A stretch of 64,000 nucleotides of DNA from Bacteroidaceae bacterium (GCA_017455585.1 JAFSZU010000028.1:3220-67219), one strand, 5' to 3'. Positions 34,833 to 39,859 are shown, numbered from the stretch's first letter. Numbers and translations: made by a program. The notes: generated by a model from the letters alone, not told the origin.

Positions 34833-34840
34833 TACCTTTG
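34833..34840 (+). promoter_or_regulatory. Bacteroidota -7 box (TACCTTTG)
   Basis: TAnnTTTG match 19 nt upstream of ATG 34859. Confidence 0.5.
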
Positions 34841-34858
34841 CGAAACATTTGTTCAACG

Positions 34859-36340
34859 ATGATTGTCATGACAACAGCACTCAGAGAAATCTTCCGCCTG
34901 TGGCTCAGGCAAAAGCGCAAGGACTTCCGTTGGCAGGAAGTCTTCATGTTTTTCTATTTCAGTGGCTTGTATCTGGCCATGGTCATTGGATTCTATGCCG
35001 CTGTGCATGATGAAGTGGCACAGCAGACCTTCCCTTCAATCTTAGTGACTTTTGCACCGCTTGTGGCTGTGAGCTTGCAGTTTGGCGACCTGGTGATGAA
35101 ACTCTTCTGGCGACGCTCGCCCGTGGAAATGGATGATTACCTGCGCACACGCCCCGTTCCTCCCCGTGACTGGGCACGTTTTGTGCTGATAGACACTTCC
35201 GCAGGATTCCTACAGTGGATGCTGGCTCTGATGGTCGGCACAGCTGCCATTCTCATCCTGTCGTGGTGGATGGCCCTGCTGTTGATGGTGCTCATCTTCT
35301 CGGTCTCACTCACCAACGCGCTATTCCAGAACTGCTGGCGACGTGCCCCGGGCAATCAGTGGACACTGCCTCTGGTCTTCGGTTACATCTTCTGGTCGGG
35401 GGTGATATGGGTTGTTGCCATCGGCACGGCTGTCGGGACGATGATGTTCACGGGCTTGCTTGATTTCAAAGACATCGTTGCAGAGAAACAATTCACCGAA
35501 GGCTTTGTGCTACCGGGGCTGCTGGCATCTGCCGCCCTGTTGCTGATTAACGGTCTCACTTGCTACATCCTGAATCGTTACTTCACGCGCATGAAGAATC
35601 ATAATGAGGAGCATCACGCGCCCGTGACCGCCACGGCGCATTCCCTCGGAGAGGTCTCGCTCTGGAGCATCGAATGGGTGCAACTGCTGCGAAGCAAACG
35701 TCTCAAGACCAGTTTCTTTGTCATTGTGGTGGTCTTCCTGCTGAACACCTATATGCAACAGAATTCCACCATCCAGACTGACATGCATGGGGTGAACATC
35801 ATGTTGCTTTTTGGCATTGCATTTCCCAGCATCATTCTGGCTCAATGGGTCATGGGTGTGGAAGCCAACTTCTTCTCGGGCATCTGGACCAAACCCTGGA
35901 GCGTGGAGGGCATCCTGCGGCGCAAGTATGTGTTCTTCTGTGCAATATGCGGTAGCATGGCATTACTGATGGTGCCTATGATCATTTGGATGGGTTTGTC
36001 GCCGCTGATGTGGCTGTGTACTTTGCTCTTCGGCTGTGGTGCCTTCGTGCTGCCCTTCATGGCTACTTGCCTGTTCAGCAGCCGCATGGACCTCTTCGCC
36101 AGCGCGTTCTTCAATTATCAGGGAGCCAACAAGCAACTTAACTTTTTCTCCTTCATTATGTTCGTTCCCATGGGCATCTACTATGCAGCCTACTTCCTCC
36201 TGCCTACGCTCTGGGCGCACGCCCTCATCGGCGGCCTCGGCATCCTCGGACTCCTGCTGCACCGCCCCTATATCCACTGGATCTATACCATCTGGCACAA
36301 GCGGAGATACAAAATCATGGAACGCTGGCAGGGAGAGTAA
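34859..36340 (+). CDS. polytopic membrane protein (DUF5687-like), putative partner of downstream ABC ATPase
   Basis: Re-started at ATG 34859, because the track start is a TTG inside the TACCTTTG promoter box. About 12 hydrophobic segments. Family call made by eye. Confidence 0.5.
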   Translation: MIVMTTALREIFRLWLRQKRKDFRWQEVFMFFYFSGLYLAMVIGFYAAVHDEVAQQTFPSILVTFAPLVAVSLQFGDLVMKLFWRRSPVEMDDYLRTRPVPPRDWARFVLIDTSAGFLQWMLALMVGTAAILILSWWMALLLMVLIFSVSLTNALFQNCWRRAPGNQWTLPLVFGYIFWSGVIWVVAIGTAVGTMMFTGLLDFKDIVAEKQFTEGFVLPGLLASAALLLINGLTCYILNRYFTRMKNHNEEHHAPVTATAHSLGEVSLWSIEWVQLLRSKRLKTSFFVIVVVFLLNTYMQQNSTIQTDMHGVNIMLLFGIAFPSIILAQWVMGVEANFFSGIWTKPWSVEGILRRKYVFFCAICGSMALLMVPMIIWMGLSPLMWLCTLLFGCGAFVLPFMATCLFSSRMDLFASAFFNYQGANKQLNFFSFIMFVPMGIYYAAYFLLPTLWAHALIGGLGILGLLLHRPYIHWIYTIWHKRRYKIMERWQGE

Positions 36341-36501
36341 AGACCCACTCCCAACCCCTCCCGTGAGGGGAGGGGAGAGTTTGCAGTTAATATAGAAAAA
36401 TGAACTAAAAGATTATTAACCCTATAATATGACCCAGTAACTTCTCAACTCTCAAGCGCCAGTCGCGCCCCTCCCTCACGGGAGGGGTTGGGGGTGGGTC
36501 T
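36341..36501. mobile_element. MITE-like intergenic element: two inverted GC-rich hairpin modules flanking ~80 bp AT-rich core
   Basis: Left module AGACCCACTCCCAACCCCTCCCGTGAGGGGAGGGGAGAGTTTGCAG (36341-36386). Right module GCGCCCCTCCCTCACGGGAGGGGTTGGGGGTGGGTCT (36465-36501). It starts 1 nt after the stop of 34859-36340 and ends 8 nt before ATG 36509. Confidence 0.75.
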
Positions 36502-36508
36502 TTATCTT

Positions 36509-37237
36509 ATGGAACTGAAAATCAAACAACTCAAGAAGACTTATGGTGAGAAAGTGGCACTGGATATTCCTGAACTGAATATCTATAGTGGTGAACTCGT
36601 AGGCCTCGTGGGCAATAACGGTGCGGGCAAGACCACGCTGCTGCGCCTCATCCTGGATCTCATCAAGGCAGACACCGGCCACGTCTATTCCGGCGGTATC
36701 GACGTGGCAGCACCCGCCTCTAAGCCGCAGGAGTGCGAGGCGTGGAAACTCTACACCGGCTCCTTCATCGACGGGCGCTTCCTCATAGATTTCTACACGC
36801 CCGAAGAGTATTTCACCCTTATCGGACGTCTGTATGGGATTCCACAAGCCACCATCGACGAGCGTCTGGAAGCCTTCAAGCCTCTCATGCACGACGAGAT
36901 ACTGGGCACCAAGAAGTATCTCCATGACTTCTCTGAGGGCAACCGTCAGAAGATAGGTATCATAGGAGCCATGCTCATACACCCGAAGGTGCTTCTGCTG
37001 GACGAGCCTTTCAATTATCTGGACCCCTCCAGCCAGATTGTGGTGGCACGCCTCATCCAGCAGATGAACCGTGAGCACGGCACCACCGTCCTCATCTCCT
37101 CCCACAACCTCAACTTTGTCTCGGACATCAGCACCCGCATCCTTCTCTTGGAGAAGGGAATTGTCATCAAGGACTTGTCTAATAATGAAGGAAGTGCTAC
37201 GCAGGAGCTGAATGACTACTTCAATGCTGAAGCATAG
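36509..37237 (+). CDS. ABC transporter ATP-binding protein
   Basis: Re-started at ATG 36509 (MELKIKQLKKTYG). Walker A GNNGAGKTT, signature FSEGNRQK, Walker B LLLDEP. The track start lies inside the repeat element. Confidence 0.85.
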   Translation: MELKIKQLKKTYGEKVALDIPELNIYSGELVGLVGNNGAGKTTLLRLILDLIKADTGHVYSGGIDVAAPASKPQECEAWKLYTGSFIDGRFLIDFYTPEEYFTLIGRLYGIPQATIDERLEAFKPLMHDEILGTKKYLHDFSEGNRQKIGIIGAMLIHPKVLLLDEPFNYLDPSSQIVVARLIQQMNREHGTTVLISSHNLNFVSDISTRILLLEKGIVIKDLSNNEGSATQELNDYFNAEA

Positions 37238-37351: not shown

Positions 37352-39859
37352 CTATTTCAGCCAGCGGGCGAGCCAGTTGAAGTAGGTGCGCTGCCAGAGG
37401 ATGCCGTTCTGGGGATGGAGCACCCAGTGGTTCTCGTCGGGATAGAGGAGCAACTCGGCTTCGATGCCTCTCATGCGTGCGGCGTTGAAGGCGCTCATGC
37501 CCTGGGTGGCGTTGATGCGGTAGTCCTTTTCGCCGTGGATGCAGAGAATGGGGGTGTCCCACTGGTCAACAAAGCGGTGAGGAGAGTTCTCATAGGTTCT
37601 CCTGGCGTTGGCTGTCATGTCCTTGTTCCAGTAGGCATCGTCATATTCCCAGTTACTGAACCAGTTCTCCTCGGTCTCTGTATACATGGCTTCGAGGTTG
37701 AAGGCGCCGTCGTGAGCGATGAAGCACTTGAAACGCTTGTCATGGTGACCGGCAAGGTAATAGACGCTGAAGCCGCCAAAGCTGGCTCCCACGGCACCCA
37801 GACGGTCACGGTCCACGTATGGGAGGGAGTCGCACGCATCATCGATGGCACTGAGGTAGTCCTTCATGCACTGGCCTGTCCAGTCGCCGGAGATTTCCTC
37901 CAGCCACTCCTGCCCGAAGCCGGGGAGGCCGCGGCGGTTGGGGGCAATGATGACGTAGCCCTGTGAGGCCATGATGTCGAAGGTCCAGCGGTAGCTCCCG
38001 AACTGTGAGACGGGTGACTGGGGGCCGCCTTCGCAGAAGAGCAGGGTGGGGTATTTCTTCGATGGGTCGAAGTGGGGGGGCTTGATGACCCAGTAGAGGA
38101 GCTGCTGGCCATCGGTGGTGGGGCACCAGCGGGGCTCGGAGGTGCCGGGGGCGAGTTGGGAAAGGATGTGGTCGTTCTCGGCGGTGAGGCGGGTGATTTC
38201 TGCAACGGCGGTGCCGTTGCCTGCGCCAAGAGAAGAAGCAGCATTGGAGGCTGTGGTAGTGGGAACGGTAACCAGATAGAGGTCGGCGGGATGGAAGAAG
38301 TCGTGACGCTCCATGAGGAGGGTGGCGCCAGCCTTCTCCCCTCCATCACGGGCGGGGTCGGGGGTGGGTCTTGGGATGAGTTGCAAATTGCCCCAGTCGG
38401 CCTGGTCATTGGTGAGCTGTGTGACTTCGCCCTTCAGGTTGGTGCGGTAGAGATTGACGGTGGCGTGCCAGACACCTATATAATATAAGGTATAGCTGTC
38501 ATCGTCCCATACGAAGTCGTCAACGTTGCTGTCAAAGGACTCGGTGACATATACTTTGGCGTTCTCTATTGGCTCATTGGCGAGCTGCTGCAGGTCATAG
38601 ACGCAGAGACGCTGGCGGTCTGCCTCGTAGCCGTCACGCTTCATAGAGAGCCAGGCCACGTAGCGGCCATCGGGCGAGAACTTGGGGTTCTGGTCGTAGC
38701 CCACATTGCAGCCCTTCAAATCCTGGGCCTGGTTGATGTACTGGTTTTTGAGAGACTTGGTGGGATTGCAGGAGTTATCAGGACTGCCGACGAATCCTCC
38801 ATCGGGTACAACGTCAAACTCACAACCGTTCTTGCAGAGGTTCCTGGTCTTGTTCATGTCGCCGCTCTCCACATCAAAGAGGAAGATGTCGGAGTCGGTG
38901 CTGATGCTGTAGTCAATCCCGGTCTTGCAGCGGCAGGTGAAAGCGATGAACTTGCTGTCGGGGCTCCAAGCGAGCTGCTCGATGCCGCCGAAAGGTTCCA
39001 TGGGACATTCATAAGGCTCACCTTCGAGGATGTCGAACTCCTTACCCGTGGCCAGGTCAAGGACGAAGGGATGCGGGATGCTCTCGACATAGTGATCCCA
39101 GTGTCGGTACATGAGGTCTGTGATGACGCGGCCAGTGCTCTTGGGCAGGTCGGCGGGGCGCTCCTGGATGATGTCGTGGAAAGGCACGGACTTGATAATG
39201 ATGACCTTTTTCTGGTCGGGTGAGAAGAGGAAACCATCTACGCTGCCGCCGGTCTTGGTGAGTTGCTTGCGGGACTTGCCTTTTGCGGTCATGGTCCAGA
39301 TGTCGCCTTTGAGGTTGAAGGCGATGCGGTTGTTGTCCAGCCAGACAGGGTCGCTGCCGAGACCGAGGAAGGTGGGGGATGTTTCCGCGCTAATAAGCGC
39401 GGCACCCGACCCTGCGGCGGTTGAGGATGCAGGAGATCCTGCGGCGGCTGGGGAGGCAGGGCTTGTTTCAGGCTCGGCGGCGGTTGAGGATGCAGGAGAC
39501 CCTGCGGCGGTTGAGGAGGTTGTTCCCCGTTCTGCGGCGGCTGAGGAGGCAGGAATATCCAGACAGTAGAGGAGGGTGTTGCTGCGGTCTTCGGGGACGC
39601 TGTAATAGGTGACCTGATAGGCGACTTTGGAGCCGTCGGGGGAAACGGCGTAGGAGCCGATGCGTCCCATGGCCCAGAGGGCTTCGGGCGTGAGGGTGTC
39701 GCTCTGGAGCTGGATGTTGCTGCGCGTGATGACGGGCTTCTGTTCTTTCTGGCAGGCGGTCATGATGGCGATGATGAGGAGGAGGAGGAAAAGCCTCACC
39801 CCCGCCCCCTCTCCGAGTGAAGAGGGGAATAGATGGTTGTGGATAAAGGAATGTTTCAT
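37352..39859 (-). CDS. S9-family serine peptidase (beta-propeller + alpha/beta-hydrolase)
   Basis: Lipobox IMTAC. Nucleophile elbow GASFGGFSV. C-terminal ..IHGEKDYRI..HWV catalytic Asp/His region. N-terminal WD40-like propeller. Confidence 0.75.
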   Translation of the reverse strand: MKHSFIHNHLFPSSLGEGAGVRLFLLLLIIAIMTACQKEQKPVITRSNIQLQSDTLTPEALWAMGRIGSYAVSPDGSKVAYQVTYYSVPEDRSNTLLYCLDIPASSAAAERGTTSSTAAGSPASSTAAEPETSPASPAAAGSPASSTAAGSGAALISAETSPTFLGLGSDPVWLDNNRIAFNLKGDIWTMTAKGKSRKQLTKTGGSVDGFLFSPDQKKVIIIKSVPFHDIIQERPADLPKSTGRVITDLMYRHWDHYVESIPHPFVLDLATGKEFDILEGEPYECPMEPFGGIEQLAWSPDSKFIAFTCRCKTGIDYSISTDSDIFLFDVESGDMNKTRNLCKNGCEFDVVPDGGFVGSPDNSCNPTKSLKNQYINQAQDLKGCNVGYDQNPKFSPDGRYVAWLSMKRDGYEADRQRLCVYDLQQLANEPIENAKVYVTESFDSNVDDFVWDDDSYTLYYIGVWHATVNLYRTNLKGEVTQLTNDQADWGNLQLIPRPTPDPARDGGEKAGATLLMERHDFFHPADLYLVTVPTTTASNAASSLGAGNGTAVAEITRLTAENDHILSQLAPGTSEPRWCPTTDGQQLLYWVIKPPHFDPSKKYPTLLFCEGGPQSPVSQFGSYRWTFDIMASQGYVIIAPNRRGLPGFGQEWLEEISGDWTGQCMKDYLSAIDDACDSLPYVDRDRLGAVGASFGGFSVYYLAGHHDKRFKCFIAHDGAFNLEAMYTETEENWFSNWEYDDAYWNKDMTANARRTYENSPHRFVDQWDTPILCIHGEKDYRINATQGMSAFNAARMRGIEAELLLYPDENHWVLHPQNGILWQRTYFNWLARWLK
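38331..38371. repeat. GC-rich hairpin element inside S9 peptidase CDS
   Basis: GCCTTCTCCCCTCCATCACGGGCGGGGTCGGGGGTGGGTCT. Confidence 0.7.
39383..39411. repeat. CGCG hairpin box inside S9 peptidase CDS
   Basis: TTCCGCGCTAATAAGCGCGGCACCCGACC. Confidence 0.55.
39411..39565. repeat. in-frame 27-33-bp tandem repeats (CTGCGGCGGYTGAGGAGGCAGGA) in S9 peptidase CDS
   Basis: Five units encoding an A/S/T/P-rich tract (..STAAGSPASSTAAEPETSPASPAAAGSPASSTAAGSG..). Confidence 0.75.
39792..39832. repeat. GC-rich hairpin element in S9 peptidase signal-peptide region
   Basis: AGCCTCACCCCCGCCCCCTCTCCGAGTGAAGAGGGGAATAG. Confidence 0.65.

Follow-up and report, generated by a model that had tools for sequence, protein, structure and literature searches.

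A hairpin-ended repeat unit fills the spacer between a DUF5687 membrane-protein gene and an ABC ATPase gene in a Prevotella-like genome and may mask the ATPase start

We analysed a window of 64,000 nt (contig C141:3220-67219) from the genome G000, an assembly of 2.82 Mb in 201 contigs that is 80% complete. Within this window, a DUF5687 membrane-protein gene is followed on the same strand by a gene encoding an ABC transporter ATPase (Table 1). The DUF5687 protein ends (..MERWQGE) at the same residue as its orthologues, and the start of the ATPase is kept in orthologues as well (MEL/MEI..). The ATPase is DrrA-like but scores under every curated NCBIfam cut-off. With a divergent OEP/HlyD efflux unit on one side and a convergent S9 peptidase gene on the other, the two genes most likely form one transcription unit. 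The S9 peptidase ORF (37352-39859, minus strand) itself contains two single modules of the repeat family described below (38334-38371 and 39792-39833), one of which falls within the first codons of the ORF.

Table 1. Features of the DUF5687-ABC ATPase junction, in positions of the window.
Feature	Position	Strand	Basis
DUF5687 membrane-protein gene, 500-codon ORF, stop TAA 36338-36340	34838..36340	+	ORF list; Pfam PF18940, E = 8e-24
Predicted long RNA hairpin with stop and start codon at its foot	36329..36511	+	minimum-free-energy fold
Left arm of the 37-nt inverted repeat, including the TAA	36338..36374	+	repeat search, 92% complementary
Left hairpin module, C-rich on the mRNA strand	36341..36377	+	sequence and nhmmer module match
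AT-rich core, unique to the locus	36378..36464	+	core comparisons with own genome, congeners and relatives' spacers
Right hairpin module, G-rich on the mRNA strand	36465..36501	+	sequence and nhmmer
Four G-runs (GGG A GGGG TT GGGGG T GGG), G-quadruplex-capable	36480..36498	+	read from sequence
Seven non-module bases TTATCTT before the ATG	36502..36508	+	TTA pairs with TAA, UCUU with 36333-36336 (minimum-free-energy fold)
ABC transporter ATPase gene, DrrA-like	36509..37237	+	ORF list, domain match, orthologues

A hairpin-ended unit fills 161 of the 168 nt between the TAA of the DUF5687 gene and the ATG of the ATPase gene. It consists of two GC-rich hairpin modules that face each other in inverted orientation across a core of 33% GC, in a genome of 56% GC. 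An earlier note on this DNA had described this layout, and both the sequence and the repeat search bear it out, with two small corrections: the unit begins at the base adjoining the TAA and not after a gap of 1 nt, and seven bases, not eight, separate its end from the ATG. The note had further proposed that essentially the whole intercistronic region, including any ribosome-loading sequence for the ATPase, is element DNA; this holds for the extent of the unit, but a loading sequence of the Shine-Dalgarno type is not expected in this phylum (PMC6847099).

The repeat search returned a terminal inverted repeat of 37 nt (36338-36374 and 36468-36504, with a gap of 93 nt) that takes in the TAA stop codon and a mirror TTA (TAAAGACCC / GGGTCTTTA). 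Each arm also contains a local hairpin. The one in the left arm (36355-36375) has a C-run/G-run stem of 8-9 bp and a GTGA loop, and the one in the right arm (36468-36487) a perfect stem of 8 bp and a TCAC loop. The G-quadruplex-capable motif lies on the mRNA strand, 11-29 nt 5' of the ATPase ATG. At the right edge of the core we found a subterminal GCGCCAG, which is common to members of the subfamily and to the nuclease units discussed below. The left arm has an extra G at 36367 compared to four same-species contigs. Matches to the 22-nt end motif occur five times in the window and not once in 100 shuffles. A search of Rfam over 36000-36900 gave nothing at the gathering score and two sub-threshold chance matches, and inspection of the + strand of the core by eye revealed no TAnnTTTG box of the Bacteroidetes type. 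A TTG at 36488, within the right arm, is in frame with the ATG at 36509 and 21 nt upstream of it; an element-encoded N-terminal extension of 7 residues is formally possible, and the orthologues begin at the ATG.

The arms recur throughout the genome. They gave 109 BLAST matches in G000, and an nhmmer profile built from them detected 175 modules, of which 132 form 66 facing pairs and 43 are single. The earlier description of the spacer as repetitive element DNA is thereby confirmed, and the spacer is not, as far as its arms are concerned, a locus-specific sequence without copies elsewhere. Facing pairs (66, with a pair length of 102-214 nt) far outnumber neighbouring pairs in any other near orientation (4), and arms are more alike within pairs than between them, with none of 2000 permutations, carried out within the two main end types AGACCC.. 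and AGCCTC.., reaching the observed value. The excess of facing pairs and the likeness of their arms indicate that the pair is the unit of the family. The end pattern is present in 49 of 81 genomes of the genus, G000 included, at 0-70 copies per genome and 66 in G000, whereas the reversed end pattern, used as a control, has 0 matches in the 81 genomes. The nhmmer profile is specific to the subfamilies of G000, and a scan of 148 foreign loci for further pairs detected one. In the literature on Prevotella in connection with MITE, REP, REPIN, RAYT, DUF559 or RPE, we did not find a description of this repeat family.

Compact subfamilies of 108, 120, 126, and 129 nt have conserved GC-rich cores. 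The core of the copy at 36341-36501 matches no other core of its own genome, and a comparison with 178 congeneric genomes returned just chance-level AT-rich matches of 20-30 nt. The earlier note had taken this copy to define the element; given its unique core, the compact subfamilies of 108-129 nt and the nuclease units of about 510 bp define the family better. The copy does share an asymmetric inner layout, with a GCTGGCGC-type motif inside one arm and a TAAC-type motif inside the other, with three long copies that have AT-rich cores (C70:31565, C131:1291, and C107:777). Its left arm is fitted better by 3 of 27 other right arms than by its own right arm.

Most copies sit inside genes. Among 65 pairs, 42 are read through by ORFs with at least 40 and often hundreds of open codons on each side, and the compact subfamilies of 108-129 nt supply most of these. 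The length is a multiple of 3 in 44 of the 65 pairs and in 32 of the 42 read-through pairs. Single modules behave similarly, 30 of 43 being read through by long ORFs. Among the 27 pairs that lie outside ORFs by a crude gene call, the stop codon of a long ORF ends between -5 and +2 nt from the element end in 14, compared to 4.5-7% expected with uniform intergenic placement (binomial p ~1e-10). The junctions at these stops are of the types TAA/AGACCC, TGA/AGACCC, T/AGACCC, TAA/AGCCCC and similar, where the slash marks the element end. Single modules in the same genome abut stop codons in five cases and start codons in four.

Three pairs, including the copy at 36341-36501, have a stop codon at one foot and a start codon at the other. 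One of the others (C139:15158-15295) measures 138 nt, belongs to the AGCCTC subfamily, and takes up the spacer that separates an rnfD/nqrB-like gene from an FMN_bind (rnfG/nqrC-like) gene; the TAG of the former overlaps the element by 2 nt, and the ATG of the latter lies 6 nt beyond it. A related layout is found between a purH-like gene and mreB (C118:10092-10240), where the element supplies the last codons of the upstream ORF, which stops 53 nt inside it, and the mreB ATG follows 19 nt after the element. The rnfG-like gene and mreB, which stand behind these elements, are presumably needed genes.

The flanks of the 65 pairs contain no target-site duplication. Instead, the palindrome continues into them for a few purines, with a preference for R-A-M ahead of AGMCYC. 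A TA duplication (TA/AAGACCC..GGGTCTT/TA) fits the copy at 36341-36501 but fails in most other copies, among them two nuclease units of the same subfamily (L053 and L056, see below), and was rejected.

These features bear on how the family is to be classified. The earlier note had called the element MITE-like, and this is apt for its shape: a 37-nt inverted repeat, small size, and many copies. A classical IS-derived MITE, on which a DDE transposase acts at the terminal repeats and leaves a target-site duplication, would also account for the lack of an ORF and for the presence or absence of copies between relatives. However, there is no direct repeat at the copies, whose flanks continue the palindrome and show a mere purine preference; no transposase partner was found, and the longer elements found with the same ends carry a DUF559 gene and no transposase; and 42 of 65 pairs lie in frame in genes. 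We therefore regard an IS-derived MITE as very improbable.

REP, BIME, and REPIN elements (PMC3116915, PMC3337134) resemble the family in several respects: they are doublets of inverted GC-rich palindromes with a variable spacer, occur in high copy number together with many singlets, typically occupy operon spacers or the sequence just behind stop codons, and can influence both the stability of the mRNA and the translation upstream of them. Nevertheless, a REPIN, i.e., a REP doublet moved by a RAYT tyrosine transposase, appears close to untenable here. G000 has no Y1_Tnp (PF01797) protein, one of five congeners with 17-70 modules has a strong Y1_Tnp match, and no module lies within 1.5 kb of any match, so that no RAYT adjoins the modules. 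Moreover, REPINs are extragenic, whereas two thirds of the pairs described here are in frame within ORFs, even if the copy at 36341-36501 is itself extragenic, and the REP superfamilies have a GTAG or CGTC head (PMC3733652) where the present end motif reads AGACCC/AGCCTC.

The habit of lying in frame within genes is shared with the Rickettsia palindromic elements (RPE; Ogata et al. 2000; reviewed in PMC10969869 and PMC3184786), which are likewise palindromic repeats of about 100-150 bp without a known transposase, with many copies that are read through. By description, the family in Prevotella differs from them in belonging to the Bacteroidota, in its sequence, in the GC-rich nested-hairpin arms, in the link to DUF559 genes, and in having intergenic copies that abut stop codons, such as the untranslated copy at 36341-36501. 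Given phylum and composition, homology to RPE-1 to RPE-8 is not expected.

Longer elements with the same ends carry a nuclease gene. Five module-rich congeners contain 13 strong DUF559 matches (E ~1e-31 to 1e-34), and 8 of these 13 loci are bracketed by facing modules 479-823 bp apart. The DUF559 units measure about 510 bp and have AT-rich interiors. Two of them, L053 in genome G067 and L056 in G032, agree with the copy at 36341-36501 in their GTGA-loop arms and in the GCGCCAG motif. Their ORFs match PF04480 (E = 3e-32), and the encoded proteins resemble PDB 3hrl (E = 8e-17) and, more weakly, 3r3p (E = 0.003). The DUF559/Vsr-like clade belongs to the PD-(D/E)XK nucleases (PMC3424549). The protein of these full-length relatives is thus comparable to I-Bth0305I, a Vsr-like/EDxHD homing endonuclease (PDB 3r3p; row 58, Table 1, PMC3424549). 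However, I-Bth0305I sits in a group I intron, whereas the DUF559 genes are enclosed by hairpin inverted repeats, where neither an intron nor an intein was detected, and the copy at 36341-36501 has no nuclease gene.

Across 80 congeners, a DUF559 gene is present in 27 of 31 genomes with at least 5 modules and in 19 of the 49 others, a descriptive comparison of related and hence non-independent genomes; 19 genomes with few modules thus do have the gene. In the G000 assembly, which is 80% complete, DUF559 is absent above the cut-off and represented by one 19-bit fragment in a frame of 1333 codons. We take the link between DUF559 and the modules, as read from the sequences, to be an association only. 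The nuclease units may have given rise to the miniature copies, or the nuclease gene may be a parasite of the repeats that homes into them; a DUF559 nuclease acting in trans is one candidate for the mover of the family.

L053 and L056 begin directly after the TAA of an upstream ORF with the junction TAA/AGACCC, as found at 36340/36341, and the far end of L053 adjoins a TGA on the opposite strand. The copy at 36341-36501 could accordingly have decayed from a unit that inserted at full length behind the stop codon, with the AT-rich core as what remained once an internal deletion had removed the nuclease gene. The identical junction in full-length members of the same subfamily, the common GCGCCAG motif, and the AT-rich interiors of the full-length units fit such an origin. 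However, the core shows no significant DNA likeness to the interiors of the DUF559 units (best z = 2.6-3.1 of 14 comparisons), and a profile search of 390 translated frames from 65 miniature elements detected no DUF559 remnant (all E > 10). We consider this origin unlikely.

The same junction can be compared between relatives. Eight contigs encode an identical ABC protein, and the element is present in all four that were examined. As these four contigs come from independent metagenome assemblies, the insertion is real and not an assembly artefact. Their spacer measures 167 nt, compared to 168 nt in the window, and differs from it at 3-4 positions, whereas the DUF5687 and ABC genes differ from those of conspecifics at 0-8 of 2211 positions. 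A read-through or bypass fusion of the DUF5687 and ABC proteins was rejected, since the spacer of 168 nt is in frame here but that of 167 nt in the conspecifics is not.

The earlier note had recommended comparing the gene pair in related strains, and empty sites were indeed found. In the nearest other lineage (ABC protein 93% and DUF5687 protein 74% identical), the two genes are separated by a 79-nt AT-rich spacer without modules, and the element at 36341-36501 is missing from about 100 further loci in GTDB genomes and metagenomes. None of the related loci offers an empty site that can be aligned base by base to the insertion. Across relatives (L064-L172), the DUF5687-ABC spacer ranges from 0 to 183 nt and often consists of short tandem repeats of 6-16 nt. 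This hypervariability indicates that the spacer contains no conserved signal and that none was displaced by the element. On these sequence comparisons, the unit at 36341-36501 is a lineage-specific insertion into a hypervariable, unconstrained spacer.

In other lineages, modules of distinct sequence occupy the same position after the DUF5687 stop codon. A TAA/AGCCTC.. junction is found directly at the stop in L073, L103, and L104, and the same type occurs 3 nt off in L067 and L068 and 9-12 nt after the stop in L115 and L116. L097 has T/AGACTCTCC.. at the stop codon, and L141-143 have TAG/AAATCTCC.. at the head of a decay series that leads down to L133. L172 has a module directly after the TAA according to the spacer listing. 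When the 17 module-bearing loci other than L172 were scored on a maximum-likelihood tree of the ABC protein (108 loci), presence and absence of a module at the junction required at least six changes. In the decay series (L143, L148, L137/L139, L133/L136/L140), the solo module after the stop codon decays by substitution while the spacer stays constant at 146 nt.

Two sister species with flanks that are about 97-99% identical show the contrast most directly, as the site is filled in G184 (L073) and empty in G180 (L074) after the same stop codon. Comparison of the filled with the empty site revealed that 5 nt were replaced and none duplicated. The 108-nt insert of G184 consists of one GC-rich module followed by an AT-rich tail, and the end of this tail nearly duplicates the native sequence just 5' of the ABC start, which hints at an event beyond simple insertion. 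In L070 (G153), a module lies at the ABC start, and the ATPase apparently has an N-terminal extension that reads through it (..PSFEGRAGGG..).

Such solo modules raise the question of whether the copy at 36341-36501 arrived in one piece. Two separate events could have placed one solo module after the stop codon and another before the start codon, in which case the core would be native spacer. The core is unique and AT-rich like native spacers, which in relatives are similar in length (26-183 nt); solo modules lie right after the same stop codon elsewhere (L073, L097, L103, L141, and others); G153 has a module at the ABC start; and solo modules abut five stops and four starts in the same genome. 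The arms of the copy are also not each other's best match, and the absence of a homologue of the core, together with arms that are not unusually alike, counts against arms and core as one arriving unit. On the other hand, facing pairs dominate in this genome (66 against 4 other near arrangements) and the arms of a pair co-vary, both arms of this copy belong to the same GTGA-loop subfamily and share the same AA dinucleotide, and the asymmetric inner layout recurs at C70:31565, C131:1291, and C107:777. The core also shows no significant likeness to the spacers of the nearest relatives, which carries little weight as those spacers evolve too fast. Taken together, we judge two separate insertions to be improbable.

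The position of the element between the two genes has consequences for the predicted structure of their mRNA. A 211-nt stretch folds at -98.3 kcal/mol, compared to -57.7 +/- 4.5 kcal/mol in shuffles (z = -9), and a context of 280 nt at -108.0 kcal/mol. The earlier suggestion that the arms could pair in the mRNA agrees with this prediction, in which they are joined just where the two cistrons meet. In the context of 280 nt, the helix extends past the element, and the bases around the stop codon are predicted to pair with positions -1 to -20 relative to the ABC start: UAA is paired with UUA at 36502-36504, GAGA at 36333-36336 with UCUU at 36505-36508, and U and G of the ATPase AUG with 36330 and 36329. 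Formation of the long helix could face kinetic competition from the local hairpins of the arms or from a G-quadruplex.

The predicted cost of opening the ATPase start is 29.1 kcal/mol for positions -18 to +10, 12.2 kcal/mol for -9 to +10, and 1.4 kcal/mol for 0 to +15. For the -18 to +10 region, 67 homologous junctions of other lineages have a median of 4.3 and a maximum of 13.0 kcal/mol, and 120 crudely called gene starts of G000 a median of 7.3 and a maximum of 23.5 kcal/mol. The rnfD-rnfG junction (C139:15158-15295), which has the same geometry, has a predicted opening cost of 30.6 kcal/mol. Shine-Dalgarno sequences are absent from Bacteroidetes mRNAs, in which secondary structure and an A at position -3 tune initiation (PMC6847099). 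The ATPase start has a C at -3, and this together with the strong predicted structure suggests that the start on its own should be very poorly accessible.

We propose that the arms would pair in the bicistronic mRNA to form a helix of about 45 bp, the foot of which would tie the last DUF5687 codons and the stop codon to positions -1 to -20 of the ATPase start and thus occlude it. A ribosome that reaches the TAA would unwind the lower 12-15 bp of the helix and free the opposite strand before the AUG. ATPase translation would thereby depend on translation of the upstream permease gene, i.e., be coupled by unmasking, and would not be abolished. On this model, coupling by unmasking seems to us more likely than silencing, since the helix has the stop codon of the upstream gene at its 5' foot. 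The rnfG-like gene is preceded by the same arrangement, which indicates that downstream expression is possible with it. The helix would also be a likely substrate of RNase III and a possible weak terminator, and partial termination, RNase III cleavage, and stalling of terminating ribosomes at the helix are possible further effects.

Such effects might also have been put to use by the host. The element could be a co-opted RNA device in the manner of REP or Correia elements that sets the ratio of permease to ATPase via partial termination, protection from 3'-exonucleases, or cleavage by RNase III. A U-rich run (UUUAUCUUAU) follows the helix, which is very stable, and all four same-species contigs examined carry the copy. 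Newbury is said to have reported in 1987 that the malE-malF REP stabilises the upstream mRNA, and Liang, Rudd and Deutscher reportedly found in 2015 that upstream translation drops when a REP lies within 15 nt of a stop codon. The Correia elements of Neisseria (PMC2649163) resemble the present copy in their length of 100-160 bp, their boundary by inverted repeats, and their co-transcription with neighbouring genes; their RNA hairpins bind RNase III, are cleaved or protected by it, and alter the expression of adjacent genes. They differ in having a TA target duplication, conserved cores, IHF sites, and promoters generated by their ends, none of which was found in the Prevotella copy. Against co-option, the hypervariable spacers of relatives (0-183 nt) show no need for a device of this kind, solo modules at this position in other lineages decay by substitution (L143 to L133), and the spacer differs from conspecifics at 3 of 168 positions while the flanking genes differ at 1-2 of 2211. 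A simple scan for sigma-70 promoters and terminators, which is unsuited to Bacteroidetes and uninformative here, called no terminator at the element. Co-option is thus doubtful.

The explanation that we prefer, with moderate confidence in it as a whole, is that the copy at 36341-36501 is a lineage-specific member of a family of non-autonomous, palindromic, hairpin-ended miniature elements that is very abundant in a rumen Prevotella-like genus, and that it masks the ATPase start with coupling to upstream translation. The element would be selfish DNA that confers no necessary benefit on the host. The family comes closest to RPE by habit, to REP/REPIN by shape and post-stop site, and to Correia elements by its expected effects on RNA. 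New here are the statistics of stop adjacency, the recurrent occupation of one junction, and the quantified geometry of occlusion. More speculatively, the family may choose as its target either the bases that immediately follow a stop codon or a position in frame, and copies that fill a spacer may act as ribosome-operated clamps that impose strict translational coupling wherever they land; we offer this broader view as an unlikely extension.

Prevotella are dominant in the rumen and in many communities of the gut. The family reaches 60-70 end-pattern matches per genome at genome sizes of 2.6-3.3 Mb and lies inside essential genes and at gene ends, and its non-translated members are not scattered through spacers but attached to stop codons. 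One junction has been occupied repeatedly in different lineages, and of more than 180 start regions that were compared, the one behind such a copy is predicted to be the most occluded. Should terminating ribosomes open the helix, these elements rewire the translation of operons; if the helix stays closed, they silence or attenuate downstream genes. The clamp, if true, would represent a mobile element that installs translational coupling in a phylum without Shine-Dalgarno initiation. The findings matter for how Prevotella operons are read, for gene calling in metagenome-assembled genomes, and for the persistence of selfish DNA in compact genomes.
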